A DNA stretch of 64,000 nucleotides from a virus (taxonomy: Duplodnaviria; Heunggongvirae; Uroviricota; Caudoviricetes), in IMG/VR virus record IMGVR_UViG_3300029705_000040, positions 38,209 to 102,208 of that record; one strand, given 5' to 3'. The notes beneath the pieces were generated by a model. That model made no database searches, was not told the origin of the DNA, and saw only the letters and a list, made by a program, of their open reading frames with translations. The stretch's first letter is position 1. The number at the start of each line of letters is the position of its first letter. Shown here piece after piece: positions 10,256 through 29,859 of this stretch. Made by a program: the position numbers and the translations under genes.

Positions 10256-10441
10256 ATGAGTAAAATTATGGAAGAACTTAATAGAATTTCTTTATTAGAA
10301 TCTATGTGTAAAAATCCTGTTACTGTAGATGCTATTAATAACTCTTATAAAGAAGATGCTGATGATAGTTTCGGTATTTTCGATACACCTGAAGAAGCTT
10401 TTGCAGCTATGGAAGAGAGTTGGAAAAATGAAAAAAATTGA
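10256..10441 (+). CDS. Small acidic protein; candidate antitoxin of the downstream RelE/YafQ-like toxin
   Basis: 61-aa ORF starting after the tRNA (track ORF trimmed); overlaps the toxin start by 14 nt. Confidence 0.4.
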   Translation: MSKIMEELNRISLLESMCKNPVTVDAINNSYKEDADDSFGIFDTPEEAFAAMEESWKNEKN

Positions 10442-10727
10442 GCTTAAAAAGTAGTTTACCAAAGATTTTGAAAAGTTATCAAAAACTGGTAAAATCGATA
10501 AGAAAAGTTTTTCTAATATAATTAATGATATAGCTGCTGGAAAACCTCTTGATCAAAAATATAGAGATCACGCTTTAGCTAAGCACTCTCCAAAAGAACT
10601 ATAGGGCTGTAGAGACTTCCATTATAAAAGCAATATATGTGTTGTTTATAAAGTTTTAGATGATTTAATTCAGCTTATAAGGATTGGAAGTCATCAAGAT
10701 CTAGGATTAACTGAGGATTTAAGATGA
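10428..10727 (+). CDS. RelE/YafQ-family type II toxin, 99 codons including 2 in-frame TAG
   Basis: Verified frame ATG 10428 to TGA 10725. Only internal stops are TAG at 10452 and 10602. Motifs ...KDFEKLSK..., DHALAKH, CRDFH, VVYKV..LIRIGSHQDL match YafQ/RelE. The first TAG aligns with Q of E. coli YafQ SGQYSKDV. Confidence 0.6.
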
Positions 10728-11383
10728 CCGATTTAGAAATATTTATACAAAACAATCAAGAATTAATCGATCTAAATACTAAAGAAAGCTGGATAGAAAT
10801 TTATGATTTGTTTGAAAGCTCTTATTATGATGATTATCTAGCTGGAGAATTAAGCAAATTATTAATTGATATTAATGCAGATCCATGTCATATAATCGGT
10901 TTTGTTCCTAGAAGATTTTTAATGGGTCAAAGCGATTTAACTAAATATGAAATACCTAAAAATGCATCTTATATAGGAATGAGTGCTTTCGAAGATACAG
11001 CTTTAGAAGAAGTATATATACCAGAAAGTGTTAGAGAGCTAGATTTCTTATGTTTTTCAGGAACTAAATTAAAAAAAGTATTTATACCGGATACTGTGCA
11101 TAGAATAGCAAATGGGGTATTTCATTCTTGCTTAAATCTAGAAGAAGTATTGATTGGTAAAGTATCGGAATTGGGCGAAGATGTTTTTGCTAATTGTGAG
11201 AATTTAACAAAATTAATTATTTGCGATAGTGTATCTCAACTTGATTCTAGCATTGTTAAAGGTTGTAAATCACTAAAAGAAATCGATTTTTTAGGAACGA
11301 TCGAAACATTTGAAAAGATTCGAGTAGGTTATACAGAATCATCTATAAAAATAAAATGCATAGATGGTGAAATTTCTTGGTAA
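10724..11383 (+). CDS. BspA-type leucine-rich repeat (LRR_5-like) protein
   Basis: Repeats of the form IP.SV..I...F..C..L..V.I across 219 aa; ATGA overlap with the toxin stop. Confidence 0.65.
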   Translation: MTDLEIFIQNNQELIDLNTKESWIEIYDLFESSYYDDYLAGELSKLLIDINADPCHIIGFVPRRFLMGQSDLTKYEIPKNASYIGMSAFEDTALEEVYIPESVRELDFLCFSGTKLKKVFIPDTVHRIANGVFHSCLNLEEVLIGKVSELGEDVFANCENLTKLIICDSVSQLDSSIVKGCKSLKEIDFLGTIETFEKIRVGYTESSIKIKCIDGEISW

Positions 11384-11480
11384 AATAATTAAAAATTAAG
11401 AAATTAGTCCTGTATAAATAATTGTTAAAAGAAAAACATTTAATTTAAGAAATTTTTACGCTAAATTAAATGTTATAAAT

Positions 11481-11565
11481 GCTGGTGTTCCCGTAGTGGC
11501 CAACCGGAACGGATTTGTAATCCGTCGCGAAAGCTTCGTGAGTTCGAATCTCACCACCAGCTCCA
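11481..11565 (+). tRNA. tRNA with anticodon TGT (Thr ACA?) but an 85-nt type II-like architecture
   Basis: Acceptor GCTGGTG/CACCAGC-T-CCA, anticodon ACGGA-TTTGTAA-TCCGT, extra hairpin CGAA-AGC-TTCG in the variable region. Confidence 0.5.
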
Positions 11566-11645
11566 GACGTCGAAATCAAAAGTAGACAAACAGATACGTT
11601 ATCTCAGAAATAATCTGTATAAACTATAAGAGATAACATAAAAAT

Positions 11646-11719
11646 GCCTCGATGGCTCAGCGGTAGAGCAGTCGCCTAGTAAGCGACAGGTCGTCGGTTC
11701 AAATCCGACTCGAGGCTCC
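11646..11719 (+). tRNA. tRNA with anticodon AGT (A34; Thr ACN reader?)
   Basis: Acceptor GCCTCGA/TCGAGGC-T-CCA, D GCTC/GAGC, anticodon GTCGC-CTAGTAA-GCGAC. Confidence 0.6.
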
Positions 11720-11727
11720 ACAATATA

Positions 11728-11804
11728 TTGGGGATTCGCCAAGCGGTAAGGCACGGGATTTTGATTCCCGCATTTCGGGTGTTCGAATCACTCATCCCCA
11801 GCCA
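11728..11804 (+). tRNA. tRNA-Gln (TTG)
   Basis: Acceptor TGGGGAT/ATCCCCA-G-CCA (U1-A72 as in bacterial Gln), anticodon CGGGA-TTTTGAT-TCCCG. Confidence 0.8.
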
Positions 11805-12101
11805 CCAGTGTATATATTTTTCATGAAATAAGTCTTATATATACATATATGGATAGAGACTTTGTCGGAGATATTACAACGGGTATACCCATAAGGGTGA
11901 GAGCATAAGAGTTAAACCGGCTTATTGCGAACCAGTGAACTTACGGACACAGAACGGTAACTGTAGGGAACGTAGGTAGACAACGAGTTCACTCCCTAAA
12001 GAACTAATGACCGATGCTTAGTATAATTAGTAGTACTTTCCCTTTCCTGGGAGAAACATCAGTGCAATTCTGGTAGTATCGACTTAATTAAGGAAAAACA
12101 A

Positions 12102-12290
12102 ATGATTTCACTTATTCTATTATTTCTTGAACTGATATATTTATATGTATATTATATCGTAAAAAGTAAAAGTATAGAGAAGTCACTAATGTATATAGAT
12201 AATTATATTATAAATGGTAGAAAACTTCTCACTAATACTGGTTTAGAAATTATTAGAAGTAGAGTAAATTCTAAAAGAAGTAAATTTTAA
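12102..12290 (+). CDS. Small hydrophobic protein, 62 aa
   Basis: ORF with AGGAAAAA RBS. Confidence 0.4.
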   Translation: MISLILLFLELIYLYVYYIVKSKSIEKSLMYIDNYIINGRKLLTNTGLEIIRSRVNSKRSKF

Positions 12291-12300
12291 TGAGGTGTTT

Positions 12301-12669
12301 ATGTATTCGCATCTAAATGAGCAATTATTGCTAGAGATGGCTGAAATTGGTCGTATTGATGGATATAAGATACTAATTTATGGCAGTGAAGGACCTACAC
12401 AACATTTTCATGTAGAAAATAAAGAAAAGAAAATATCAAGTTGTGTAAAAATTTGTGAAGATGGTTATTTTAGTCATGGAACACATAAAGATACTTTAGA
12501 TAATAAATTAGTTAAAAAATTAAAAGAATTTCTTAATGCTCCTCATAAATTTTTTGGAAAACATGGTTATACTAATTGGCAAATAATTTGTATTTATTGG
12601 AATGATAATAACCCAGATTATTTAATTGATTTAGATACAGTTAAGATGCCTTTGTATAATAATTTATAA
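12301..12669 (+). CDS. Hypothetical protein, 122 aa
   Basis: ORF; GAGG at 12292-12295 precedes ATG 12301. Confidence 0.55.
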   Translation: MYSHLNEQLLLEMAEIGRIDGYKILIYGSEGPTQHFHVENKEKKISSCVKICEDGYFSHGTHKDTLDNKLVKKLKEFLNAPHKFFGKHGYTNWQIICIYWNDNNPDYLIDLDTVKMPLYNNL

Positions 12670-12747
12670 TTTTGAAATATTGCTCTGCTGGCTGTTTTTA
12701 GTATCAATTGATTCAGGACTAAAACTGCAACTGGAGCCTTATATTAT

Positions 12748-12822
12748 GGTGGGTTCGTATATCGGTTAGTACACAGCACTGTCACTGCTGAAGGACGGGT
12801 TCAACTCCCGTACCTACCGCCA
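12748..12822 (+). tRNA. tRNA-Asp (GTC)
   Basis: Acceptor GGTGGGT/ACCTACC-G-CCA, anticodon CAGCA-CTGTCAC-TGCTG. Confidence 0.8.
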
Positions 12823-13187
12823 TAAAACAACAGTAAGTCCAATACTTAGTAGGCTACGTAGTACTTTGATTGGCTAGTTGTTAAGTATTCGTAGTTCGTC
12901 GAAATAAAACAAACGAATTAACCGTAAGTAACGGCGAGCGAAAACGGTTAGCCAGTAGTAAGGACAATCTTGCGAAGGCACAACTGATACATATGACAGC
13001 TTCATATGTCGTAGCATAGAAAAAGTGCTCATGATGTTTTACGTAAAGTTACATCCACTGAATTCGCTCATCTAATGAGCAGCTAGTAACACTTACTTTT
13101 GATAACAGAGAACAAATAGATATTGAAACCCAGTGTTACAAATTACTTTATAAACAGCTATTGAAACTTACTTTTATCAAATTATTC

Positions 13188-13272
13188 TGCAGGGTAGCTC
13201 AGTAATCGTTAAAGAGCGCTAATCTTTGCTAAGATTAGAGGTCGTTGGTATGAAATCCATCCCCCGCCGCCA
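13188..13272 (+). other. Aberrant tRNA-Ala(TGC)-derived element with an 8-nt anticodon loop
   Basis: D-arm TAGCTCAG...GAGCG and variable AGGTC match E. coli tRNA-Ala. Anticodon stem CTAATC/GATTAG has loop TTTGCTAA (8 nt). T-loop TATGAAAT (8 nt). Acceptor TGCAGGG/CCCCGCC has 2 mismatches. G-CCA encoded. Confidence 0.4.
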
Positions 13273-13404
13273 TTTAACAGTTTCAAAATTCTGTATTAAG
13301 AATAGAGCTATTATTACTTACTTTTTGAAATGGTTATTATAGGTTCGATTCCTATACTGAGCCTTAGGCTTAGTTGTTAGTAATATAACTTATCTATTCT
13401 ATAT

Positions 13405-13481
13405 AGCTGGGTAGAGCAGTCAGGTAGCTCGCTAGGCTCATAACCTAGAGGTCCAGGGTTCGAATCCCTGCCAAGCAACCA
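13405..13481 (+). tRNA. tRNA-Met or Ile2 (CAT), with A1:A72 mismatch (initiator-like feature)
   Basis: D GAGC/GCTC, anticodon CTAGG-CTCATAA-CCTAG, T CAGGG-TTCGAAT-CCCTG, CCA. Confidence 0.65.
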
Positions 13482-13531
13482 CTCTGCGTTTTTGGCTAGT
13501 CTTCGCGAAGAAAAATAAACTAGCATAATAT

Positions 13532-13608
13532 TGGGGCGTAGCGCAGTTTGGTAGCGCGCCTGATTTGGGATCAGGAAGTCGTGGGTTCAAGTCCCGTCGC
13601 CCCAACCA
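13532..13608 (+). tRNA. tRNA-Pro (TGG)
   Basis: Acceptor TGGGGCG/CGCCCCA-A-CCA, D GCGC/GCGC, anticodon CCTGA-TTTGGGA-TCAGG (G37). Confidence 0.85.
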
Positions 13609-13856
13609 CACCAATTAACAATTATAAAACATATTTTGTACTTGTTAATTTGAGATGTACCTATAATAGGGTCGCTACTGTTGCAGCAGTAGGAAAACAA
13701 CATAAAGCGTAGTATTAAAAGAACGATTAATTAAAATAGATGCACACGGTAGCGCGCCAAAAGGCTCAGTTATAATGGTATTGAGAGACGTGGGTTTCAC
13801 TTGGAGAATCGGGAGGGTGAACGCTTTATTTTATATATTTTTAGTTGAATAATGAA

Positions 13857-13986
13857 GGTGCCACGAAGGATCTAATACCGTAACCAGTCGGTTCCTCATG
13901 TCCATATAACGCCTTTAAACTAAGGGGGTTGGAAACAGGGTTGGATTGTAAAAATAGCTGTGGTAAATGGAATGTGATGAACAGCC
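13857..13986 (+). repeat. Structured non-coding element, copy 1 (GGTGCCACGAAG...AGCTGTGGTAAATGGA..GATGAACAGCC)
   Basis: Shares its 5' 12-mer and a ~45-nt 3' block with 14296-14381. Confidence 0.5.
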
Positions 13987-14295
13987 TTTAATTATAAATA
14001 AAATAGCTGATGTACTAGTGTACAAACAGTTTCTCAGGTCGATTCGGAATCGGCTTGTGCATAAACAATTCTCTTAGGCTTACTATTGTTCGGAACTTTA
14101 GTAGCACACTTAAGAGCTTAGAGAAGTCATTGTTTGTAAGTGGAAAGATAATACGCACGTATTAAATCAAGACTCATTTTCAATAAAAGAAACTTACCAC
14201 ACCACTAACTTATTTTTAATTACCGCGGGAATCATTATTAAGTTGAGTGGAAATTTGAATTTAAGCATTTCAACAATTCAATAATCCCTATAGAC

Positions 14296-14381
14296 GGTGC
14301 CACGAAGCCGGCTGACAAGCCGAGGGGTCGCGTTGGATCTGTATAACAGCAGCTGTGGTAAATGGAGCGAAATGAACAGCC
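14296..14381 (+). repeat. Structured non-coding element, copy 2
   Basis: GGTGCCACGAAG...GTTGGATCTGTATAACAGCAGCTGTGGTAAATGGAGCGAAATGAACAGCC. Confidence 0.5.
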
Positions 14382-14716
14382 GTTAATATATTTTTTATAA
14401 GGGAGACTATTGAGATGTTTGGAATGGATCAATGGAATTTTCTTGCATATGCTTTATTAATTAATTATATGGAAGAAAATAAAAAGCTATTTGGAAGGAT
14501 TTGAGCAACTATCTTTCCAAAATATGGGCCGTTATATCATGTTAGCAGATTACCTGATTTGCACTCAGGAGGCGACCGGGGCAGCACCGGTACGGTCCAC
14601 CAGAACTAAATATAAGGTAGCAAAAGAAGTCATGAGCTTTTGAGATAACAATACTACTATTATTGAGCTTAAATTTAGTATATCGCAAATATTTTTCATA
14701 GTAGGAGAAATTATAA

Positions 14717-15643
14717 ATGCAAAGTTTTCAATGTATATGTGGAAAAATTTTTTCATCTAAACATGCTTTAAGCGGGCATCACAGTCATTGCGTAGAATAT
14801 TTAACTAATATTGGAAGATTACACATACGGCAATAGGTGGATGCTACAAATGGAGCTAAAAGTGGTGCTACACTAAAAGCAAAAAGCATAGAAAGAAAAG
14901 CGGCTAATATGCTAGCTTGGGTATAGCAGTAGAATACATGTGAAAAATGTGGTAAGATTATGCTTGAGAAATTTGGATCTGGTAGATTTTGCTCCAGAGC
15001 ATGTGCTAATAGTCATGTGAAACATGGAAAATATACAAACGAAAACGTAAAAAATAGAAAAACAAAGTCAAATAAAAAATCACACAATCAACTACTTAAA
15101 GAGTATATTTTAAGTCCACCGAAATGTTTGATTTGTGGTAAAACTCTTGCATATGAGAAACGTGCTAGAAAAACATGTTCAAAAAATTGTTGTAGTAAAT
15201 ACCTCTCGAAGTAGAAAAAAGATCTAGTTGAAAAAGTTGGCGGTAACTTAAATCAATATGGTACGCGAGGTCACGCTAGATATGGTACATATAAGGGGTT
15301 TCACTGCGATTCTTCTTATGAGCTCGCGTTCGTAATATATTGTCTAGATCATAATATTATATTTTAGAGAAACCATAAGGGATTTTCTTATAATTTTCAA
15401 AATAAAAATTATAAATATTATCCAGACTTTATTATAAATGATAAATACATAGAAATAAAAAATTACAAAAGCGATCGCGTTATTGCTAAGACTAATTAGT
15501 TTCCAATAGATAAGATTTTAGTAATTCTTTATTTATCTGATATAAAAATCTGTATAGATTATTGTATAAAGGTTTATGGTAAAAATTTTACTGAACTCTA
15601 TGATAAAGATAAACCATCATGGATGGATAAGAAAAATAGTTGA
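14717..15643 (+). CDS. PD-(D/E)XK/C2H2 freestanding nuclease, paralog 2; contains 6 in-frame TAG codons
   Basis: Verified frame ATG 14717 to TGA 15641. Only internal stops are TAG at 14834, 14924, 14930, 15212, 15365 and 15497. The C-terminus FHCDSSYELAFVIYCLDHNIIF*RN...YYPDFII...EIKNY...PSWMDK aligns with 1533-2306, and the TAG sits at the same column. Confidence 0.6.
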
Positions 15644-15681
15644 TGCAGATGCCGCGTGTTCGACTCACGTCAGCTCCACCA
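15640..15681 (+). other. tRNA 3'-half-like fragment overlapping the nuclease stop
   Basis: GCGTG-TTCGACT-CACGT + CAGCTCC-A-CCA; no matching 5' half found in the window. Confidence 0.3.
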
Positions 15682-15782
15682 TTAAATCGAATACAGGTAC
15701 TTGCGAGATGTTATACTGTTGTAAGCAGTGTTTAATAACAGTGTTAACAACAATATAACATTTTCCTGTATATTTAATAAAT

Positions 15783-15858
15783 GTGGGTGTAACTCAATTG
15801 GTAGAGTGCTAGCTTGCCAAGCTGGATGTTGCGGGTTCGAACCCCGTCACTCACTCCA
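15783..15858 (+). tRNA. tRNA-Gly (GCC)
   Basis: Acceptor GTGGGTG/CACTCAC-T-CCA, D ACTC/GAGT, anticodon CTAGC-TTGCCAA-GCTGG. Confidence 0.8.
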
Positions 15859-15983
15859 GGCCATATGTGCAAATGATTAGAAATAACCAGTGATGGCTCC
15901 AGAGATGTTTTATGGTTGAACTCATATAATAAAAACCATTATCGCCTTTATAAGTAATGCACATTGCGAAAATGAGGCTACTG

Positions 15984-16059
15984 CGAGAGTTATATCAATT
16001 GGGAGATAAGCTGCCTTACAAGCAGAAGGTTACAGGTTCAAGTCCTGTACTCTCGACCA
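15984..16059 (+). tRNA. tRNA-Val (TAC)
   Basis: Acceptor CGAGAGT/ACTCTCG-A-CCA, D TATC/GATA, anticodon loop CTTACAA. Confidence 0.8.
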
Positions 16060-16410
16060 TTAGGAAAACTACAACGGGATAGGAGACCCCCGCTACAGAG
16101 ATAACCAATGCATTCGTTGAAAAATACGTGTCATCTAGAGTTGAGTTGGTGAGTGGGAGGGCACAGAGCTAAACGATAATATGTTAAAGTAAACTGTTGA
16201 TACTTATTATTTTATGCTCCGAGACAGTGTGGTCGCAAGACGTGACATCTTAAGTGCAGAGGTATGTGGATGTTGTAGCAGATTAGGGTTTAGATGCATC
16301 CGAGAATTGGGTTTGCCCTAATCAAGTATGGGGTTGCTGGTGTAACGTTAGCACGACAGATTGTGGCTCTGTAAGACTAAGTTAGATTCTTAGGCTTCCC
16401 ACCATTAAAT

Positions 16411-16497
<87 letters not shown>

Positions 16498-16597
16498 AGA
16501 TTGTTTAGTTTCTGTGTTATACTTTTTATCAAACTTATACATAATATATATGTAGAAGATAATTCTTCTAAAATATTTTAAGTGAGGTATAAGAAAC

Positions 16598-16969
16598 ATG
16601 GACAACAAAAAAGAAACTCAAACTCAAGAAACATCATTTAGAGGAATTCCCATTCCTGAAATTGAAAAGAAGCATGATTATAAAGTAGCTGATTCTCAGA
16701 AAGTTATCGATAAGATAATGGCTATGTCTCCAGAAGAACAGAAAACAGTTACTCTTGAAAGCATCCATTACGAAGATAAAGAAATTAGCGAAGTAAAGCT
16801 CTCTACTGGTGATATTATTCCTGTAGAAGCTGCTATTGCACTTGCTGAAAGTAAATTATTAAATGGATTTAGAGCTGGTAGAAATGCTAGAGGCGACCGC
16901 ACTTTAAGAGCTACCCCTAATTATGCTGGTAAGGAAAAGAATTCTATCCACAAATTACCTGTATTCTGA
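16598..16969 (+). CDS. Hypothetical protein, 123 aa
   Basis: ORF with GAGG RBS; TGA stop. Confidence 0.65.
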   Translation: MDNKKETQTQETSFRGIPIPEIEKKHDYKVADSQKVIDKIMAMSPEEQKTVTLESIHYEDKEISEVKLSTGDIIPVEAAIALAESKLLNGFRAGRNARGDRTLRATPNYAGKEKNSIHKLPVF

Positions 16970-17012
16970 GATGAAAGGCTAGAGGAATATAATTTCTCTA
17001 GTTTACATATAA

Positions 17013-17089
17013 GCCTTCGTGGCTCAACTGGTTAGAGCGACCGGTTCATACCCGGTAGATTGGGAGTTCAAGTCTCTCCGAAGGCACCA
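17013..17089 (+). tRNA. tRNA-Met (CAT), elongator-like
   Basis: Acceptor GCCTTCG/CGAAGGC-A-CCA, anticodon ACCGG-TTCATAC-CCGGT. Confidence 0.8.
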
Positions 17090-17165
17090 GCAGGTATAGT
17101 GTAACGGATTAGCACATCAGACTACGGATCTGATAATATGGGTTCGAATCCTATTACCTGTACCA
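17090..17165 (+). tRNA. Second tRNA-Arg-like (ACG; loop CTACGGA)
   Basis: Acceptor GCAGGTA/TACCTGT-A-CCA, anticodon TCAGA-CTACGGA-TCTGA; directly abuts the previous tRNA. Confidence 0.6.
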
Positions 17166-17191
17166 GAAAAACTTTTCGGAGGAATACATAT

Positions 17192-17425
17192 ATGAGTAAA
17201 AGAGTTGATAATTTAGTAGATATGCTTGATGGGTATGTATCAGATGGTGGTCATCACTTAAATGTTAACTGTTTTGATCGTGAAACGTTACTAGATGCTC
17301 AGGCTCACCCTGAGAAATATCCCCAACTTACAATACGAGTATCGGGTTACGCAGTAAATTTTAATAAACTAACTCGCGAACAACAGGATGATGTAATCAG
17401 CAGAACAATACACACAAATATGTAA
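17192..17425 (+). CDS. grcA: Autonomous glycyl-radical cofactor (GrcA/YfiD-like spare part)
   Basis: [54 protein letters not shown] matches the C-terminal glycyl-radical domain of E. coli GrcA/PflB (RVSGY). GGAGG RBS. Track ORF trimmed out of the tRNA. Confidence 0.85.
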
Positions 17426-17451
17426 CAATTTTATAACGGAGGTACTAAGCA

Positions 17452-17661
17452 ATGTTAGTTGATCTTAGTAATGTATCTAAGGTTAAAGATTTTGTTAAAG
17501 TATCGCAGGACTGTAAAGAAGAAATTCTTATTAAATCTGGAAAATACATAGTTGATGGTAAATCAATTTTGGGGATTTTTTCTTTAGACTTGAGCAAACC
17601 TGTAGAACTTGAACTTGACGAATCTATTAAACCTCGCTTCGCTGAATTCGAAGCTAAATAA
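17452..17661 (+). CDS. Hypothetical protein, 69 aa
   Basis: ORF with GGAGG RBS. Confidence 0.55.
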   Translation: MLVDLSNVSKVKDFVKVSQDCKEEILIKSGKYIVDGKSILGIFSLDLSKPVELELDESIKPRFAEFEAK

Positions 17662-17734
17662 TATTTGCTCACAAAAATACCTCTTTCTTTTTAAGACTAT
17701 CTGGATTTATTTTCAGATGGTCTTTTATTTTTAG

Positions 17735-17763
17735 TTGATTTTTTATGTATTTTATTATATAAT
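17735..17763 (+). promoter_or_regulatory. sigma70-like promoter TTGATT-N17-TATAAT (copy 5)
   Basis: TTGATT 17735-17740, TATAAT 17758-17763. Confidence 0.55.
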
Positions 17764-17797
17764 ATATTTAACAAAAATATATTGGAGGTTAACTAAC

Positions 17798-18939: not shown

Positions 18940-18940
18940 T

Positions 18941-20468: not shown

Positions 20469-20849
20469 ATGAGATAGTTAGTTAGATTATCAGAAGATGG
20501 TACATATAAACCTATCTGTAAAAATTGTATAAAAAATTATCAATGTTCCGGTCAAGCAGAATGCTTATCCATAATGCTCGAACATATTTATAAACTTGAA
20601 AATGATGATAATATGTTTTTTGTAGGTCAAAAGATTCGAGTAAAAACATGGAATGACTTGCGAGATATTTGCTATTTCGATGGGGATGATTGGTTAGAAT
20701 TTTTCGATGGTAAAATATTTTATGAAGAAGGATCGAGCATTTGTGGCGAAGTGTTTGAAATTACAGACATCGAAGAAGATCAATTATACATAACAGATAA
20801 ACATGGTTATGTTCGAGCTTTATCAAAGGATTGGGTTTGGAAAGTATGA
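20469..20849 (+). CDS. Hypothetical Cys-rich protein; start probably at ATG 20469 with an in-frame TAG at codon 3 (alternative: ATG 20574)
   Basis: GTGAGGAAAAATG gives a strong RBS for ATG 20469, whereas ATG 20574 has none. Frame 20469-20849 is open apart from TAG 20475. Confidence 0.45.
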
Positions 20850-22305: not shown

Positions 22306-22799
22306 TTTCAAGAGAAAAATTTATTCGAATAGTAAATTCTGCTAGAGATTTTTATAGAAGATTAGCTCTTATTGAGGAAGGTCTAGGTGTTGTTTCTGAT
22401 AAAATGTCTGATTTTCCAGGTTTAATCCTTGATGAGTTAGAAGAAGAATCAAACAGAAGATGGACGGATAAACTTTGGGATGATATTTATAACACTTCTC
22501 GAGATGCAGGCGATATCTATGATGATATTCTTGACCTCGAACCAACTCAACCTATAAAATCAGATGATATTGTTGAGGTTATTGCTTTATCTGATCTTAA
22601 GAAACTTTTCAAAGAAAAAGATGATGGAACGCTTTATTTTCAAACTGATAAAAATACATTTTATTGGATGGATGAGTTCGAACCACTTTGTGGAAAAATG
22701 TATCAGGTAGAAAATGTTTATTGGGATGATAGCTTTAGTTTAAGGGGAGTTAGAAGATTAGTACATCTACCTGCTGCTTTTGTTAAACTTATTAAATAA
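22302..22799 (+). CDS. Hypothetical protein, 165 aa
   Basis: Coupled ORF. Confidence 0.55.
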   Translation: MISREKFIRIVNSARDFYRRLALIEEGLGVVSDKMSDFPGLILDELEEESNRRWTDKLWDDIYNTSRDAGDIYDDILDLEPTQPIKSDDIVEVIALSDLKKLFKEKDDGTLYFQTDKNTFYWMDEFEPLCGKMYQVENVYWDDSFSLRGVRRLVHLPAAFVKLIK

Positions 22800-22827
22800 A
22801 TACATAAAGTCAACTATATAAAAATAG

Positions 22828-22856
22828 TTGACTTTCATTTTAATTTATATTATAAT
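22828..22856 (+). promoter_or_regulatory. sigma70-like promoter TTGACT-N17-TATAAT (copy 6)
   Basis: TTGACT 22828-22833, TATAAT 22851-22856. Confidence 0.55.
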
Positions 22857-22883
22857 AAATGTATAAATCTATAGAGGTATATT

Positions 22884-23222
22884 ATGATTGAAAGAGAATT
22901 ATTCGAAGATATAGATGATGGTGAGTTAAAATCTACAGAAGAAATCTCTATGATACTTTTGGGGGAAGAGCTTTTTAACGAAGATAGTTCTGATGATGGT
23001 ATTTTATCAGATAGTAATGATCTTTATGTGGCTTCTCAAATAGTCATACAGGCAGGTTTAGCTATCTCTACCTATGATTTCAATACATATAAAGATTCTA
23101 TTTTACAATTATTAAATGGAATTTCAGAAGCTCATAATTCTGGTCAAGAAGCAGCTGTAGATATGCTGTTAAAAATAACAAAGCAATTTGTAGCTGGAGG
23201 TATCCAATGTCAAAACTTATAA
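22884..23222 (+). CDS. Hypothetical acidic protein
   Basis: AGAGGT RBS. Confidence 0.5.
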   Translation: MIERELFEDIDDGELKSTEEISMILLGEELFNEDSSDDGILSDSNDLYVASQIVIQAGLAISTYDFNTYKDSILQLLNGISEAHNSGQEAAVDMLLKITKQFVAGGIQCQNL

Positions 23223-24214
23223 TTATGGTAGGTTTACCTGGTAGTGGTAAATCGTATGCAGCACATGTATTAAATAAAGAAAATGATTATGAGATTCTAT
23301 CCAGTGATACTTTTAGAAAAAGAATGTTTGGGGATGAAAATGATCAAGCACATAATGAGCAAGTATTTGCAGAAATGCATAAATGGTTAAGAGCTTATCT
23401 TACATATGGTAGAGATGTTATCTATGACGCTACAAATACGACAGTAAAAGCTAGAAAACATATTTTCAGTCAAATACAGGGAATCCCAGAATTAGAAGTA
23501 GAAGCTATTGTAATGAACACACCTATAGAAGAATGTATATTAAGGGATTCTTTTAGAGAAAGACATGCTGGTAGCAGCGCTATTTATAAGTTTTATTTAA
23601 GTTTTCAATTTCCACAAAAATTCGAAGGCTTTGATAGAATAAAAATTTGGGGTTATAACTGTATTCCTGAGTTTAATTTAGATTTTTACAGATCTGTTAA
23701 AAATTTAATGCTAGAAACTGATCAGAAAAATCCTCATCATATATATTCTTTAGGTCAACATTGTCAATTAGTAGCTGATAATTATGAAACACGCACTATA
23801 GAAAATATGGCTGCTACTTTCCATGATGTTGGTAAGCTTTTCACTCAGAAAATTGATGATCAAGGGATTGCTCATTATTATAGTCATGATAGTATTGGTA
23901 CATATTATCTCATAAGTCATTTACCTCTTATAGCTTACTCAGGAACTACCTGGGATGATATTTTCGAAATTCTTTTTTATGTAAACTGGCACATGAAAGC
24001 ACACAAAGAATTGCGTACAGAAAAAGCTGAAAGGAAATACAGGAAACTTTTTGGCGATGAAAGGTATGAAAAGCTTCTTAAATTTGCTGATAATGATATT
24101 ATTGCAAGTGGTACAGAATCTATCCATGATGAGCTTACTAAATGGATTAAAGAAGATAAACTCACTTTAGATGAGATCCGCAACAAAAGAAAGTTTAAAA
24201 AATTATTAAAATAA
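23207..24214 (+). CDS. P-loop (poly)nucleotide kinase fused to an HD-domain phosphohydrolase; candidate RNA-repair end-healing enzyme
   Basis: Walker A GLPGSGKS near the N-terminus; HD motifs HHIYSLGQH ... FHDVGK. Confidence 0.7.
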   Translation: MSKLIIMVGLPGSGKSYAAHVLNKENDYEILSSDTFRKRMFGDENDQAHNEQVFAEMHKWLRAYLTYGRDVIYDATNTTVKARKHIFSQIQGIPELEVEAIVMNTPIEECILRDSFRERHAGSSAIYKFYLSFQFPQKFEGFDRIKIWGYNCIPEFNLDFYRSVKNLMLETDQKNPHHIYSLGQHCQLVADNYETRTIENMAATFHDVGKLFTQKIDDQGIAHYYSHDSIGTYYLISHLPLIAYSGTTWDDIFEILFYVNWHMKAHKELRTEKAERKYRKLFGDERYEKLLKFADNDIIASGTESIHDELTKWIKEDKLTLDEIRNKRKFKKLLK

Positions 24215-24220
24215 ATTATA

Positions 24221-24267
24221 AAATCCAGGTTAAATCAGTTGATTTTTACCTGGATTTATTATATAAT
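24221..24267 (+). promoter_or_regulatory. Promoter copy 7 (TTGATT 24239-24244, TATAAT 24262-24267) embedded in hairpin AAATCCAGGT/ACCTGGATTT
   Basis: 10-bp inverted repeat whose loop contains the -35. Confidence 0.55.
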
Positions 24268-24301
24268 ATATTTGTAAATAAAAGATAGAGAGGTACATAT
24301 T

Positions 24302-24562
24302 ATGGCTAAAAAATCTGATAACAAAATGGTATGCTGCGGAACCGCACTCATGAAAGTTTTCAAAGATCTCGGTAATTATACGCAAGAATCTCAAAAGAAA
24401 GATTTACTTAATTTTGTACATAATGTATTTACTACTGAAAACGTTCCTCAAGATTATGCTAATGAAATTCTTGAGAATCTTGAAAATAAGAATGTTAAAT
24501 ATGGTGTTATATACCTTGGCGATATCGTTATGAAAGGTATGAAATTGGGAGTTATTAAATAA
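24302..24562 (+). CDS. Hypothetical protein, 86 aa
   Basis: AGAGG RBS. Confidence 0.5.
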   Translation: MAKKSDNKMVCCGTALMKVFKDLGNYTQESQKKDLLNFVHNVFTTENVPQDYANEILENLENKNVKYGVIYLGDIVMKGMKLGVIK

Positions 24563-25503
24563 TGGCTAACTTTAAGTCTATAGTTATTCCAGAAAAAATC
24601 ATTATAGTAGAAAATAGCAGCGGTCAAGGTTATGTTGTTTTACCAGATAAGCCTGATATGCTCGAATCTGCTAAAAGTTGGGCTGATGGTTGGGTTTATG
24701 GCGAGGGGGCTAATTGGACTGAAAGACATGAAAATGGATATAAGTGGGAACCTATTGTTCACGAATTCGAAAATGGAAAATTTTCTTTAACACTTTGTGA
24801 TAGTGCTGATAATTCTTATAACGGTGGTAAACTTTCTTTTTGGAATTGCATGATTAAAGCGCCTAATGGAAAAGAATTTAAGATTGGCATTAATCAAGAA
24901 CTTCTTTGTAATTTGCTTAAAGATTGCACTCTTATAAAAGGTGTTTGTCAAGAAAATATTTGGTTGGGTAAACAGCTATCTAATACAGGTGTCTATATTG
25001 ATACTATGCAAGATTTCTTGCAAGCTAAAGAAGAGCTTGAAATCAGAAAGCAGTCTAAAAGCAAAACTGTTAAATATCAAGTTGGTGATATTGTTGGTAC
25101 ACTAACTAGAAAATATGTCTATTTAGGTCAAGTTTATCGAAACTATGATGTATGCGATAATTATGACTATTCTTCTAGAGATTTTAACGCTCGAGTGTTA
25201 ATTATACGGACGCTTGCTGATCCAAAACAATATCACATGTATGTTGAAATTTTGGAAAATGGTGAGTTTTATGACTGGACAAATTGGGATAATGTGGCTG
25301 AAAATAAGCGTAAGTATACTTTGTACGGTCATATGGACATTATTCCAGAAGATGTGCTTAGTCAATTAACAGAGAAAAGAGCATATTTTTTCGGTCAGTT
25401 CTCATTTAAAGAAGAGCCGCAATTAAGTAAAGAAGCTATATTAAAAATGACGCAAGACAAATCAAATAATTATAAATATCGTCTAGCGGACATGGATTGT
25501 TAA
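24562..25503 (+). CDS. Hypothetical protein, 313 aa
   Basis: Coupled ORF. Confidence 0.6.
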   Translation: MANFKSIVIPEKIIIVENSSGQGYVVLPDKPDMLESAKSWADGWVYGEGANWTERHENGYKWEPIVHEFENGKFSLTLCDSADNSYNGGKLSFWNCMIKAPNGKEFKIGINQELLCNLLKDCTLIKGVCQENIWLGKQLSNTGVYIDTMQDFLQAKEELEIRKQSKSKTVKYQVGDIVGTLTRKYVYLGQVYRNYDVCDNYDYSSRDFNARVLIIRTLADPKQYHMYVEILENGEFYDWTNWDNVAENKRKYTLYGHMDIIPEDVLSQLTEKRAYFFGQFSFKEEPQLSKEAILKMTQDKSNNYKYRLADMDC

Positions 25504-25558
25504 ATATATTCCTGTATATACTTTATGAAAGAGTATATTTATTAACAGGATTATATAT

Positions 25559-26206
25559 ATGAAAAGTTTAACTGAATTATTTTATAATGTAGACAGGAAT
25601 GTTCCTTATATTATGGTTGGAGAAGGTGTAGACTACTGCTTTATTGAAGAAGGGTCTACACTTTATATTTATTTCGAACCTAGCGATGGTAAAATAGATT
25701 GGAAACATAATTTTATGTTTGCTAAAAGACCATATAAAGACATGAAAGAGCCTTATCGAGTACATAGAGGCTTCTTAAAATGCTGGAAATATGTCGAAGA
25801 TATTGTTATAGAAAAAATAAAAGACGCAAAATTTACTGAGATCATTATTGTTGGCTATTCTCATGGTGGTGCTTTAGCCATGTTGTGTCACGAATGCTGT
25901 TGGTATCATAGACCCGATATTAGAGAGAACATTTGGGGAATCGGTTTTGATACGCCTAGAGTATATGCAGGACTTAAGGTTAGAAAACAGCTCAAGAAAA
26001 GATGGAAAAATTTCTTAGTTATAAGAAACCACACAGATTTGGTAACACATTTACCGCCAGTTATATTTGGTTATAGCCATGTTGGTCAAATGCTAAAAAT
26101 TGGTAAAAAAGCTAAATATGGTTGCATTAAGTCTCATTATCCAGATAAAATATTAAAATCACTAGAAGAATGTCCATATAATGAAAATTGGAAATCATTC
26201 TTTTAA
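25559..26206 (+). CDS. Alpha/beta hydrolase (lipase class 3-like)
   Basis: GxSxG nucleophile elbow VGYSHGGALA. Confidence 0.55.
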   Translation: MKSLTELFYNVDRNVPYIMVGEGVDYCFIEEGSTLYIYFEPSDGKIDWKHNFMFAKRPYKDMKEPYRVHRGFLKCWKYVEDIVIEKIKDAKFTEIIIVGYSHGGALAMLCHECCWYHRPDIRENIWGIGFDTPRVYAGLKVRKQLKKRWKNFLVIRNHTDLVTHLPPVIFGYSHVGQMLKIGKKAKYGCIKSHYPDKILKSLEECPYNENWKSFF

Positions 26207-26224
26207 TAATTTGAGGAATTAATT

Positions 26225-26317
26225 ATGAAAAAATATTTTGCTATATCTGATATGCATAGCTTTTATGAGCCTATGATTAAAGCTTTATCTGATAAAGGTT
26301 TTGATAATTATTTTTAA
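26225..26317 (+). pseudogene. 30-codon fragment resembling the N-terminus of the Ser/Thr phosphatase at 27399
   Basis: MKKYFAISDMHSFYEPMIKALSDKGFDNYF versus KKWFAVSDVHSYYTELIKALDEKGFDISD. Confidence 0.4.
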
Positions 26318-26401
26318 GTAACTTATATAAGAATTATATAAAAGTTATATAATTATCCTCGCTAAATTATATAGATAATAAATATATAAGGAAATCAAAT
26401 T

Positions 26402-26536
26402 ATGGGAAATAAATTATTTAGTTTTCAGTTACCAGAAGAACTTTTAAAAAAGTTATCGGAAAAAGCAGAATAGTAGAGCTTATCTGTAGCGGCTCTCATT
26501 AGACTAATTGTATATGATTATTTGAAAAATAATTAA
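26402..26536 (+). CDS. Ribbon-helix-helix DNA-binding protein with two consecutive in-frame TAG codons
   Basis: MGNKLFSFQLPEELLKKLSEKAE-TAG-TAG-SLSVAALIRLIVYDYLKNN; TAG at 26471 and 26474 replaces the two residues before the conserved SxS of RHH proteins. Confidence 0.5.
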
Positions 26537-26572
26537 AATACATAATTACATTAAAGCGAGGATTATTTAATT

Positions 26573-27424
26573 ATGATTTTTATTTATAAACTAATGTTTC
26601 CGAATAATAAAGTTTATATAGGGTAGACAAATAATTTAGATATACGTTGGATAAATGGTGGTAAGGGGTATAAAAGGTGTCCATACGTTTGGAATGCTAT
26701 ACAAAAATACAGCTGGACTGCTATAGAAAAAAGTATTCTAGAAGTCTGCAATGACAGGGATGAAGCTAATACTAAAGAAGTTTACTGGATAGCAGCATAC
26801 AATTCAGCTGATTATAGATTCGGTTATAATATCTAGTCAGGTGGAAAGTATAGAGAACGTAGTCCAGAAGCGAATGCACGAATTAAAGAGAAGAATTCTA
26901 ACAAAATTGTAAGCGAGGAAACTCGTAAAAAGATATCAAAAGCTAATAAAGGTAAAATAAGATCAGCTGAGTATAGAGAAGCTCAATCAAACAGATTGAA
27001 AGCTTACTATCGAATGCATGAGTCAAAATCTAAAGGTAAACCTGGTCATAAGACAAAGGGTTGCTTAGGCTAGCATTGGTATAATAATGGAAAGATATCA
27101 ATTCTATGTTTTGAAGACCAAATTCCAGATGGATATGTAAAAGGAAGAATTAATGTTAAATCAGGCTATAAAATGTCTGAAGACATTAAGCAAAAATATT
27201 CTTAGAGCCATAAAGGTAAGCACATAGGAAAAAACAATAGCAATGCGAAAGCTGTTGTTAAATTAGATTTAAGTTATAATTTTATAGAAAAATATGATAC
27301 TATAAAAGAAGCTTCTGAAGCAAATAATAATATTAGCGGGATTGGGGCCTGTGCACATTACAGACAGAAATCAAGCGGAGGGTTTATTTGGAGATTTTAT
27401 GATGAATGGAAAGATACAAAATAA
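26573..27424 (+). CDS. GIY-YIG homing endonuclease with NUMOD3-like repeats; 4 in-frame TAG codons
   Basis: Verified frame. IYKLMFPNNKVYIG*TNNLDIRW, GYNI*SGG, SEETRKKISKANKGK, GCLG*HWYNNG, KYS*SHKGK; TAG at 26624, 26834, 27071, 27203; TAA 27422. Confidence 0.7.
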
Positions 27425-28304
27425 AGATTATAGTCATATAAAAAAATGGTTTGCTGTTAGTGATGTCCACTCATATTACACCGAATTGATTAAAGCCTTA
27501 GATGAAAAAGGTTTTGATATATCAGATAAATCAATGGGATTAATCTTATGTGGCGATGCCTTCGATCGCGGTGATGACACAGTTAAAGTATTCGAGTTCT
27601 TAAAAGACTTAAAAGCAAAAGATAGATTAGTATACATAATTGGAAATCACGAAGATCTTTTGTTTGATTGCATAACAGAAATGTCATATGGACACACACC
27701 TGGTTCGCATCATTTTCATAATGGTACAGTAAAAACTATATGCATGCTTTGTGGGGAGAATGAGTGGATTGTATATCGTCCAACTAATGATATTATGGAT
27801 ATGGTATATAATAAAACAGATGAGGTAAGGTCTTTTATCAGAGAGAATTGTGTAAATTATTTCACATTAGGAAATAAGATTTTTGTACATAGTTGGATAC
27901 CCTGTGTTTCTGATGACCCTAATATGTATCACAGCAGAAAAACTTATTCTAAAATCAATGATATTTGGGATAAAAATACTGATAATATGACTATTAAAGA
28001 GCTTACTGATTATAGGGATGCTTGGGAAGCTGCTCGCTGGGGTAATCCTTTTACTCAGTGGAAGCAAGGTTTTTATCCAGAAGGAAAATGCATAGTTTGT
28101 GGTCATTGGCACTGCTCATGGGGTCATAGCCATATAGATATGAAAACACCAGAATGGCCACAGAAAAATCAAGTTAAAAAATTTGAAGAAGCATTTAAGC
28201 CATACATAAAAGATAATATTATCGGTATTGATGCATGTGTTGCTTATTCTGGAAAAATAAATTGTGTTGTTTTTGATGAAAGTGGAAATGTAATAGAGGC
28301 TTAA
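27399..28304 (+). CDS. Ser/Thr protein phosphatase (calcineurin-like metallophosphoesterase)
   Basis: SDVHSYY, GDAFDRGDD, GNHE motifs. Confidence 0.75.
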   Translation: MMNGKIQNKDYSHIKKWFAVSDVHSYYTELIKALDEKGFDISDKSMGLILCGDAFDRGDDTVKVFEFLKDLKAKDRLVYIIGNHEDLLFDCITEMSYGHTPGSHHFHNGTVKTICMLCGENEWIVYRPTNDIMDMVYNKTDEVRSFIRENCVNYFTLGNKIFVHSWIPCVSDDPNMYHSRKTYSKINDIWDKNTDNMTIKELTDYRDAWEAARWGNPFTQWKQGFYPEGKCIVCGHWHCSWGHSHIDMKTPEWPQKNQVKKFEEAFKPYIKDNIIGIDACVAYSGKINCVVFDESGNVIEA

Positions 28305-28370
28305 TATGATAATTGCTATAGTATTATTATGTGTACTTTGTTTATTCGGAATAGTTGTTGGAGGTGAGTA

Positions 28371-28526
28371 ATGACTAAATATGTAGCATGCGAAGATTGC
28401 GTGTACCAAAACATATGTGAAAATTTTGACCCATTTATGCAATGCCCAGATGGTGAGTCTATTGAAATGATTAGAAAAATACCTATAACATTATTAGAGG
28501 CTGAGGATAATAAAAATGAGCTATAA
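28371..28526 (+). CDS. Small Cys-rich protein, 51 aa
   Basis: GGAGGTG RBS. Confidence 0.4.
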   Translation: MTKYVACEDCVYQNICENFDPFMQCPDGESIEMIRKIPITLLEAEDNKNEL

Positions 28527-28872
28527 TAGAATTACTGAACCAAATCAACCATTAAGCTTAGTAAGAAAAATTCCTCATGAAAATTATTATTACAGGCTTA
28601 TGCTTTTAGAAAATGAGATTGATAGTAACACTATACAGTATAGATAGAAAGCTGTTACACCTGCTTATTTAGAATACTCCAGTGATGGAAAATATTATTG
28701 CGTTTGTAAAGAATGCCGTTTCAAGCTTCCAATGAAATACAAAAGATTTTGTCCTAATTGTGGTGTACGGTTACGTGAGCCGGAAAAAGATATTGATGAG
28801 CAACTTTATGAGTCAAAAAGCATAGAAGAAACTACAGAAATAACTAGAAGAAGCGCTTTGTTTATACCTTAA
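28516..28872 (+). CDS. Zinc-ribbon protein with one in-frame TAG
   Basis: Frame open from ATG 28516 to TAA 28870 except TAG 28645; CVCKECRF...CPNCG. Confidence 0.5.
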
Positions 28873-28887
28873 TATGGAGAATTATTT

Positions 28888-29082
28888 ATGATAAAAGTAA
28901 AAATAATAGCTGCTCCACACAACACGCCTGAGCAACTGGAAGAAAATATAAATACAAAATTGAAAATCTTGCAAGAAGATCTTAAAGCTAAAATCATAGA
29001 CGTGCAATTTTCAAATTTTGAGGCTATGATAGTTTATGATGATAACACTAAAAAGAAGAAAGTTTTAAATGAGAAGGTTTAA
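28888..29082 (+). CDS. Hypothetical protein, 64 aa
   Basis: GGAG RBS. Confidence 0.5.
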   Translation: MIKVKIIAAPHNTPEQLEENINTKLKILQEDLKAKIIDVQFSNFEAMIVYDDNTKKKKVLNEKV

Positions 29083-29153
29083 TTCCTTCTCATTTTCCCT
29101 GTATAAAATAATGAAAACAGAAGTTTTCAAATAAAATTATAGCACGAGGTTTT

Positions 29154-29438
29154 ATGAAAATTATTGCTGGTGAAAATTGTACAGGTAAAACAAAACAACT
29201 AATTGAGTATTCTCTTGAGAATGACATTCCTATTTTAGCGTTCACACCATCTAAAGTGGATTCTTTAATTGAGAAATCTAAAGCTTATTTTGGAAGAATT
29301 GTGGATGTAATGTACTATAAAGATGCTTTCGATTATAGTGGAAAAGTACTTATTGATGATTTAGATGAAGTATTACCTGATATACTGCGCTTTATTTTAC
29401 CGAACGCTGATGTGGAGGGGTTTGTAGTAAATGTCTAA
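29154..29438 (+). CDS. Hypothetical protein, 94 aa
   Basis: GAGG RBS. Confidence 0.5.
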   Translation: MKIIAGENCTGKTKQLIEYSLENDIPILAFTPSKVDSLIEKSKAYFGRIVDVMYYKDAFDYSGKVLIDDLDEVLPDILRFILPNADVEGFVVNV

Positions 29439-29859
29439 CCCTATTTTTAAAATTAATGATTATGTATTTGTAAAAGGTGTAGAAAATCAAGGTTAGATAA
29501 CTGATGTCGTAGAAAATGCTGATAAAAGTTACGCTTATCGAGTACACTTCTTTTATGAAAATGGTCAATCATGTGGTTATTATTTGGAGGATAAGCTTAT
29601 GGGAGTAGAGCAACCACCTGTTTCAGAAAATAAAAAAGAAATGGTAAATCACCCTAACCATTACGCAAGTAATAAATTAGAATGTATAGAAGCTATGCGA
29701 GATATTTACGGTGACGAAGCGGTAAATACTTTCTGTATTCTAAATGCTTTTAAATATGTTTGGAGAGCTAATAAGAAAAATGGTCTAGAAGATCTTAAAA
29801 AAGCTAAATGGTATCTAGATTATTCTATAAATTTAAATGAAAATAAAGCAGAAGAATAA
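29431..29859 (+). CDS. DUF3310-like phage protein with N-terminal extension read through one TAG
   Basis: ATG 29431 is in frame with track ORF 29584-29859. Only internal stop is TAG 29494. The C-terminal HPNHYASNKLECIEAMRDIYGDE...NAFKYVWRANKKNG...KAKWYLD pattern is typical of DUF3310. Confidence 0.55.

Follow-up and report, generated by a model that had tools for sequence, protein, structure and literature searches.

Concentration of TAG codons in selfish genes and tail fibers of a jumbo phage predicted to use genetic code 15

Analysis of a 64,000-nucleotide stretch of a Caudoviricetes genome (positions 38,209 to 102,208 of IMG/VR record IMGVR_UViG_3300029705_000040; this whole stretch is the window) and of its flanks revealed, on the evidence of the sequence, a phage that uses genetic code 15 with TAG as glutamine, that encodes two tRNAs with the anticodon CUA, and that partitions TAG unequally between gene classes. 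The codon is dense in homing-endonuclease-like genes (HEGs), a YafQ/RelE-family toxin, and a ribbon-helix-helix (RHH) protein, less dense in tail-fiber paralogues, and rare in all other genes. The explanation favored here, with a probability of about 0.6, is that TAG has been purged from genes needing unmodified host machinery and is tolerated in the nucleases, toxin, RHH protein, and tail fibers. Overlapping contigs of the same strain were joined to an 89.5-kb composite, which adds 16.3 kb before the window and 9.2 kb after it and holds 149 genes (~116 in the window), covering ~90 kb of a genome of at least 262 kb. Positions in the flanks are given with the contig handle (L001, L020, or L028), and the overlap of L028 with the window was checked by comparing its first 50 bases and the coinciding positions of tRNAs.

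Genetic code and size of the TAG partition

None of the window genes ends in TAG (80 TAA, 36 TGA, and 0/116 TAG), nor does any of the 149 composite genes; with TAG accounting for 24% of off-frame stop triplets, the probability of zero TAG terminators is ~1e-18. Within reading frames, the composite has 55 TAG codons spread over 19 genes, none of which contains an in-frame TAA or TGA, such that 55/55 internal stops are TAG (P ~1e-34). Open reading frames (ORFs) of the window that end in TAG under the standard code were only fragments of longer frames or overlapped tRNA genes, and in one flank gene the penultimate codon is TAG followed by TAA, where the TAG could be a genuine stop. Reading through TAG restored long frames whose coding potential extends to either side of the TAG and gave an ORF coverage, a crude measure, of 82% versus 71% under code 11 and 73% in a TGA read-through control. 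Family profiles and alignments with solved structures also run across the TAG positions, and the standard-code annotation in public records splits or omits the TAG-bearing genes.

Glutamine is indicated as the amino acid inserted at TAG since three comparisons agree. In an alignment of the nuclease gene nucB with 62 homologues, Gln was the commonest residue at 3/6 TAG columns and made up 24% of residues over all six columns pooled, versus a background of 4.5%. The motif KINQFP of the paralogous nuclease nucA corresponds to KTNxFP in nucB, where x is TAG, and the invariant Gln of the tail-fiber N-terminal motif is encoded by CAG, CAA, and CAG in three paralogues and by TAG in the fourth. Not every site is informative, as the two TAGs of the toxin align with Ser and Lys of Helicobacter pylori HP0894.

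The TAG share, defined as TAG/(CAA+CAG+TAG), was compared between gene classes in the composite. Five HEGs contain 27 TAG (share 47%, 18.6 TAG per 1000 codons), the toxin and RHH genes contain 4 (50%, 28.0 per 1000), and four tail-fiber paralogues contain 16 (27%, 8.8 per 1000), compared to 8 TAG in the 138 other genes (1.6%, 0.39 per 1000). Fisher tests against the other genes gave p = 7e-23 for the HEGs, 1e-5 for toxin plus RHH, and 1e-11 for the tail fibers, and the TAGs of the window occupy 12 genes versus ~25 when randomized over codons. The synonymous first-position T:C ratios TTG/CTG (5.4) and TTA/CTA (5.1), together with the CAA/CAG ratio (3.45), predict a neutral TAG share of 53–55%. 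TAG use in the selfish genes thus approximates unconstrained mutation, and the signal to be explained is therefore the ~30-fold avoidance elsewhere. A foreign base composition of the TAG genes was ruled out, as neither GC nor GC3 differs between TAG-rich and other genes (Mann–Whitney p = 0.46 and 0.92) and other codon ratios are alike.

A preliminary description of this DNA, made from the letters and ORFs only, had proposed that the genome is recoded, which is borne out by a codon that never terminates and that aligns with Gln in homologues. It had also set beforehand the question of whether TAG is random with respect to gene class, and across the 89.5-kb composite it is not (47–50% versus 1.6% share). 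The functions of the restored genes agree with the gene classes listed there. The partition was placed at 10428–29859, a range that omits the TAG-bearing genes at 1533–2306, 52047–53344 (the tail fiber), and 56038–56382. The assignment of TAG to nucleases stands for most of them and fails for an HNH gene discussed below, the assignment to a toxin/antitoxin pair stands for the toxin (2 TAG) and does not extend to the candidate antitoxin, which lacks Gln-type codons, and the tail fiber does carry TAG (4) under a label whose basis is given with its paralogues.

Suppressor tRNAs, promoters, and competing explanations

No CUA tRNA was detected inside the window by ARAGORN (default, relaxed, and with introns allowed) or Rfam. 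Walking upstream through protein look-up reached two tandem tRNA(CUA) genes, Sup1 and Sup2, ~11 kb upstream of the window start (Table 1), both of which are also present in the independent assembly L029. The best match of Sup2 among the phage tRNAs is tRNA-Gln(UUG), with which it shares the acceptor stem (UGGGGAU/AUCCCC) and G73. Glutaminyl-tRNA synthetase recognizes a weak 1:72 pair together with G73, while a long variable arm plus G73 is recognized by seryl-tRNA synthetase. Sup2 probably accepts glutamine because of its weak 1:72 pair, G73, and tRNA-Gln acceptor stem; Sup1 (Rfam tRNA score of 56 bits; U1-A72; G73; a variable region that is, at ~21 nt, unusually long) appears to mix features of tRNA-Gln and tRNA-Ser, leaving its amino acid uncertain. 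The Escherichia coli amber suppressor glnV44 (supE) is a tRNA-Gln with the anticodon CUA, and Sup2 is similar to this type in its CUA anticodon, tRNA-Gln acceptor stem, G73, and weak 1:72 pair. Sup2 is unlike it in having a U1-C72 mismatch, an atypical T-loop (GUCGGCA), a sub-threshold Rfam tRNA score, and a glutamine charging that is predicted. Two other candidate readers of TAG were rejected. Reading by the near-cognate tRNA-Gln(UUG) alone was judged, by reasoning, too inefficient for genes with 6–8 TAG and is unneeded given the CUA tRNAs, and the tRNA-like gene at 6355–6464 lacks a CUA anticodon. The latter is 110 nt long (Rfam tRNA, 35 bits), has a normal T-arm as well as an internal second T-arm-like hairpin, and was read by ARAGORN as a tRNA with the four-base anticodon ‘cgaa’ or as an intron-containing tRNA.

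The exact sequence TTGATT-N17-TATAAT occurs at 11 window sites, all on the plus strand, versus 0.12 expected by chance, and most of them are followed after ~20–35 nt by the start of a gene or closely by a tRNA gene. All 11 precede TAG-free genes or tRNAs and 0/11 precede a TAG-bearing gene. The suppressor tRNAs have no such promoter and lie directly behind a 12-bp terminator-like hairpin (L028:5271-5300), the foot of which is overlapped by a TATAAT-like element, and TAG-rich tail-fiber genes lie downstream of them. In addition, genes tend to have their first TAG nearer the 5′ end than expected by chance (mean relative position 0.21 versus 0.36 expected, p = 0.002; 0.18 versus 0.32, p = 0.008, when four ambiguous TAG genes are left out). 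These hints from promoters, hairpin, and 5′ bias would fit a delayed, suppressor-dependent translation. Both a phage-supplied suppressor and the lack of TAG behind TTGATT/TATAAT promoters had been put forward in the preliminary description and agree with the tandem tRNA(CUA) genes in two independent assemblies and with the 11 promoter sites. A further motif, CTGTATA(A/T), occurs at 20 sites versus 8.6 expected (including 11410, 11615, 15766, 25512, 29099, 51157, 52003, and L028:5263) and precedes the suppressors, two tail fibers, a peptidase, several tRNAs, and also TAG-free genes; no link of this motif to TAG content could be established, and it may mark a second promoter class.

Searches for relatives of the phage with megablast against GenBank phages yielded matches to tRNAs only and no close relative, tblastn against the same phages gave partial matches of ≤29.5% identity, and a metagenome scan with one upstream protein had no match. 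Relatives in IMG/VR reach only 39–49% protein identity. In a distant relative, L011 (part of a 233-kb IMG/VR contig), a TnpB gene with Pfam OrfB_IS605 and Cas12f1-like TNB domains has 8 TAG among 21 Gln-type codons, and its large neighbors have 0 TAG. Another relative, L032, has several of the gene families that occur in the window region, and its HEG homologue adjoins a tRNA array similar to that of the window. L032 uses the standard code, with TAG ending 3/15 ORFs and a CUA anticodon in 0/26 tRNAs, and its HEG homologue (P0038) is free of in-frame TAG and is itself terminated by TAG. Related phages thus differ in their code, and the amount of TAG in a selfish gene follows the code of the genome that hosts it.

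Under the favored explanation, TAG would be decoded by the two phage-encoded CUA tRNAs, and the genes purged of TAG, many of them behind TTGATT-N17-TATAAT, would be readable by unmodified host translation. Full-length TAG-bearing nucleases, YafQ toxin, and RHH protein would require that the suppressor tRNAs have already been made; the tail-fiber paralogues, to a lesser degree, and a few small genes would be likewise suppressor-dependent. As each TAG would lower the yield, genes with 4–8 TAG would be made late and at a low dose. The code, the suppressors, and the partition with its size are observed, whereas the timing of suppressor expression is inferred, and the delay or dose limit may be a selected function or a by-product.

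Several observations weigh against this explanation. The TAG share of the HEGs equals the neutral expectation and gives no sign of selection for TAG, and an adaptive switch is therefore not required. Two HNH genes carry no TAG, namely 42725–43363 (plus strand, 212 aa, Pfam HNH_5 and HNH) with its 11 Gln codons and a small flank gene at L020:17855-18301. The long variable arm of Sup1 is unusual for tRNA-Gln, and the 1:72 mismatch, T-loop, and low Rfam score of Sup2 count in the same direction. Capsid, portal, terminase, and lysis genes were not found within the ~90 kb, and neither release factor 2 nor Gln-tRNA synthetase had a Pfam match among window proteins or appeared in the precomputed annotations of the flanks; these last two genes occur in only some code-15 members and are not strictly defining. 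Finally, suppression as a timing or licensing switch is a proposal made from sequence.

An unlikely alternative is a recent code change in which the resident genes would have been too short a time under the new code to gain TAG and mobile genes would have brought their TAGs from long-recoded phages as an imported signature, with no selection or regulation. The TAG set is almost exactly the classically mobile genes (HEGs, TnpB, toxin cassette, and tail-fiber modules), the cassette of RHH and GIY-YIG genes has what looks like an insertion scar in the form of a duplicated phosphatase 5′ end, and the different codes of clade members, including TAG as a stop in L032, fit a recent change. However, imported genes are not suggested by the indistinguishable GC, GC3, and codon ratios, nor by the nuclease paralogues nucA and nucB, which have no TAG position in common. 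The conversion of the invariant Gln to TAG in one of the four tail-fiber paralogues, two of which are adjacent, indicates gain of TAG in place, and if changes from CAG to TAG were neutral everywhere, conversion would be expected among the other genes as well, which have 109 CAG codons yet only 8 TAG.

It is improbable that translational efficiency alone accounts for the pattern, with a suppressor that is always present, a TAG that is slow or leaky, a loss of TAG from genes that scales with the importance of their expression, a drift to equilibrium where selection for yield is negligible, as in selfish elements, and a distribution that follows expression level rather than timing. The graded shares, from HEGs close to neutral through the tail fibers to the other genes, favor such an account, as does the location of the suppressors, which border a large array of tRNA genes, several of them behind early-type promoters. 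The suppressors themselves, however, have no early promoter and lie behind a terminator-like hairpin, and drift by itself would not predict that the first TAG is shifted toward the 5′ end. Moreover, the 138 TAG-poor genes include many small ones with no assigned function, and high expression of all of these is unlikely. A conjecture of comparably low probability takes the code switch as containment of genomic parasites, in which HEGs, TnpB, and the toxin, whose TAG share is at mutational equilibrium, would be translated late and in traces because several TAGs multiply down the yield, and the antitoxin and housekeeping genes would remain in the standard code. With a Gln-like Sup2 and a Sup1 that combines a long variable arm with G73, the two suppressors may also decode TAG ambiguously. 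Hardly credible is the account of the TAG-interrupted genes as decaying pseudogenes of selfish elements or assembly artifacts, for although selfish nucleases frequently decay and standard-code gene callers fragment or miss these genes in public records, pseudogenes and chance are ruled out by the absence of TAG terminators in 149 genes and by 55/55 interruptions being TAG and none TAA or TGA, coding potential, family profiles, and solved-structure alignments continue across the TAGs, independent assemblies are 99.94–100% identical over the TAG regions, and dedicated CUA tRNAs exist.

TAG-bearing genes and neighboring features

Table 1. Positions of the genes, tRNAs, and promoter sites discussed in the text (window coordinates unless a contig handle is given).
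Feature	Position	Strand	Details
nucA, freestanding nuclease, 257 aa	1533..2306	+	6 TAG: 1635, 1731, 1767, 1884, 2049, 2142
Candidate antitoxin, 61 aa	10256..10441	+	acidic C-terminus; end overlaps toxin start by 14 nt
YafQ/RelE-family toxin, 99 aa	10428..10727	+	TAG at 10452 (codon 9) and 10602 (codon 59)
Phage tRNA-Gln(UUG)	11729..11804	+	ARAGORN and Rfam; acceptor stem UGGGGAU/AUCCCCA, G73
nucB, freestanding nuclease, nucA paralogue, 308 aa	14717..15643	+	6 TAG: 14834, 14924, 14930, 15212, 15365, 15497
Uncertain TAG gene	20469..20849	+	TAG at codon 3 (20475) with a start at 20469; alternative start 20574 would make it TAG-free; no family match
RHH (CopG/Arc-like) protein, 44 aa	26402..26536	+	adjacent TAGs at 26471 and 26474; directly upstream of the GIY-YIG gene
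GIY-YIG + NUMOD3 homing endonuclease, 283 aa	26573..27424	+	4 TAG: 26624, 26834, 27071, 27203
Zinc-ribbon protein, 118 aa	28516..28872	+	1 TAG at 28645 (codon 44); CxxC...CxxC motif
DUF3310 protein, 142 aa	29431..29859	+	1 TAG at 29494 (codon 22); Pfam DUF3310, 65 bits
Uncertain small TAG ORF	30472..30612	+	TAG at codon 7 (30490); a start at a downstream ATG would make it TAG-free
Putative tail-fiber/receptor-binding protein, ~432 aa	52047..53344	+	4 TAG: 52223, 52259, 52283, 53024
PHROG_28377 protein, 114 aa	56038..56382	+	1 TAG at 56107 (codon 24)
TTGATT-N17-TATAAT sites	17735..17763; others start 3257, 5860, 9281, 9482, 24239, 35755, 42051, 47492, 53400, 56526	+	
Sup1, tRNA(CUA)	L028:5306-5396		
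Sup2, tRNA(CUA)	L028:5401-5478		

The nuclease paralogues nucA and nucB are 40% identical. In nucA, the 257-codon frame has no interruptions other than TAG, most of which have positive coding scores on either side; Cys/His zinc-finger-like motifs at its N-terminus are combined with a C-terminal domain that resembles T7 endonuclease I, and it matches PHROG_15137 ‘endonuclease’ (E = 7.8e-5); nucB has 366 homologues, many of them full length, and its profile matches T7 endonuclease I weakly (PDB 1m0d, E = 0.017). A hairpin at 1479–1520 before nucA (folded stretch 1460–1545; −22.3 kcal/mol, z = −5.1, and no T-run after it) ends 14 nt before the ATG and may occlude the ribosome-binding site. The GIY-YIG gene matches Pfam GIY-YIG and NUMOD3 and the PHROG_314 homing endonuclease family (E = 3e-32), and its first TAG (26624) falls within the ‘YIGxT’ motif. 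The RHH gene upstream of it has near-threshold matches to Pfam RHH_5 and RHH_1 and matches to PHROG CopG-like and Arc-like repressors. The two genes form a cassette between a 30-aa metallophosphatase N-terminal remnant (26225–26317) and the full gene (27399–28304), with the remnant reading MKKYFAISDMHSFYEPMIKALSDKGF versus KKWFAVSDVHSYYTELIKALDEKGF at the metallophosphatase N-terminus, and the remnant resembles a scar that was left by duplication when the endonuclease cassette was inserted. The flanks add two HNH-type endonucleases with 3 and 8 TAG, L001:5864-6631 having a Pfam HNH_3 domain and L020:13287-14339 an HNH-like motif recognized by eye in the translation, with no family match. As in freestanding homing endonuclease genes, a nuclease domain is accompanied by DNA-binding modules (NUMOD3 with GIY-YIG; zinc fingers in nucA/nucB). 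The duplicated phosphatase 5′ end is a possible sign of insertion, in contigs that are all of one strain (99.94–100% identical). Rfam found no group I intron, and the endonucleases look freestanding.

The toxin matches Pfam YafQ_toxin with 67 bits (cut-off 30) and the RelE-like toxin family PHROG_7251, and can be aligned over its full length, across both TAGs, with YafQ-family toxins of solved structure, HP0894 among them (matches to solved toxins at E = 3e-13). The gene at 10256–10441 is a candidate antitoxin by its position only; it had no Pfam or PHROG match and contains neither TAG nor any other Gln-type codon, making it uninformative on TAG use. Among the small TAG-bearing genes, the zinc-ribbon gene has coding scores of 18.1 and 20.5 on either side of its TAG and no family match, the PHROG_1689 match of the DUF3310 protein covers residues 6–139 including the TAG, and residues 4–104 of the 56038–56382 product match PHROG_28377 (profile positions 2–103 of 105), which places its TAG inside a conserved family.

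Three further tail-fiber paralogues in the flanks carry 9, 2, and 1 TAG. The tail-fiber label is based on sub-threshold Mtd_N matches in two paralogues, a common N-terminal motif, and Pfam Listeria-Bacteroides repeats. In the gene at 52047–53344 the reading frame is interrupted by 10 consecutive G (52167–52176) just past the conserved N-terminal motif, and similar poly-G tracts follow an ‘FYVG’ motif in two other paralogues (L028:9243-9252 and L020:19063-19071). The tracts are 10, 10, and 9 G long and all three genes are out of frame there, where 11 (or 8) G would be in frame. Where several assemblies cover a tract they agree on its length, with 10 G for the L028 copy and 9 G for the L020 copy in four assemblies each; for the window copy, the window is the only source. 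These observations suggest programmed slippage or phase variation of the receptor-binding proteins rather than assembly error. The tracts resemble the hypermutable poly-G tracts in receptor-binding genes of Campylobacter phages.

The window has a GC content of ~31% and all of its likely genes on the plus strand. Many metagenome contigs with an identity to the window of 99.94–100% encode identical proteins. One of these contigs measures 262,236 bp, with the window located toward its 3′ end, which makes this a jumbo phage. The region 463–17165 contains 28 tRNA genes by ARAGORN and 1 further by Rfam. By Pfam, the remaining window genes have auxiliary-metabolism and nucleotide-metabolism functions or encode many small proteins with no assigned function, the assigned products including FolD, RNA ligase, dCMP deaminase, NAPRTase, NADAR, DNA methylase, a Band_7 protein, and metallophosphatases. 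At least six paralogous genes in 49372–51936 and L028:4683-5186 have a common N-terminal motif R-x-N-T-F-E-T-N-S-S-S-(T/S)-H-(S/C) and no Pfam match. Between tRNA-Pro and nucB, ~1.1 kb (13609–14716) lacks a convincing ORF in all plus-strand frames, also when TAG is treated as a sense codon, and has no match in Rfam with E ≤ 0.05. A sub-threshold match to the Y RNA-like YrlA family at 3525–3637 (39.6 bits versus a gathering score of 69, E = 8e-6) lies behind the exact early-type promoter at 3257–3285 and just upstream of a 693-aa gene (3674–5755) with no Pfam match, and could be a tRNA-like small RNA.

Relation to known recoded phages and significance

TAG- and TGA-recoded gut phages with suppressor tRNAs have been described in which early genes are standard-code-compatible and late genes are recoded, the code changes between close relatives, and an intron homing endonuclease is among the most recoded Agate families, from which its delayed production was inferred (Borges et al., 10.1101/2021.08.26.457843). 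The recoding of TAG to Gln has been validated by metaproteomics (PMC9523058), and a survey of jumbo phages described code 15 with CUA suppressors and most genome regions lacking recoding (PMC13037316). The present phage is similar to code-15 gut phages such as the Lak, crAss-like, Jade, Sapphire, and Agate groups in its low GC, lack of TAG terminators, TAG as Gln, and tRNA(CUA), and also in the absence of TAG from most of the genome, its concentration in certain modules, and the presence of standard-code relatives in the clade. It is unlike them in that TAG is densest in HEGs, toxin, and RHH gene, in a stretch seen without capsid or lysis genes, and in having two tandem dissimilar suppressor tRNAs.

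The Agate group I intron homing endonuclease, which is TGA-recoded, is alike in being a HEG among the most stop-codon-enriched genes amid standard-code genes; here, in contrast, the codon is TAG, the HEGs look freestanding and are of three types (GIY-YIG, HNH, and T7-Endo-I-like), and their TAG share is neutral. As to the late-gene model of Borges et al., what was observed here is that genes behind sigma-70-like promoters are TAG-free and that the four tail-fiber paralogues carry 16 TAG, within ~90 kb that lack capsid, portal, and lysis genes. The restraint of homing endonucleases in phage T4 is alike in that a selfish nuclease silent early and made late and low is also proposed here, and nucA has an upstream hairpin as well. 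Hairpins in T4 occlude the ribosome-binding site of homing endonucleases, e.g., I-TevI, which is made only from late transcripts. Unlike T4, the restraint proposed here would be codon-based through the suppressor tRNAs, instead of or besides RNA structure.

The idea of a delay is not new, having been proposed for late genes and for an intron homing endonuclease by Borges et al. The additions made here are a TAG share close to neutrality across several selfish gene classes, recoding of the toxin only, tandem dissimilar suppressors, and the contrast with a standard-code relative. A single phage genome thus displays a clean and quantitative two-tier code, with a neutral TAG share in selfish genes and ~30-fold avoidance elsewhere, for which the standard-code relative is a natural control, and the pattern supports selection, rather than a lack of time, as what would keep early genes host-readable. 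The toxin, which by its TAGs would depend on a suppressor tRNA, together with a putative antitoxin that would not, is a testable case. Standard-code annotation fragments or misses the nucleases, toxin, and tail fibers, and the finding therefore matters for annotation pipelines and for the prediction of host range.

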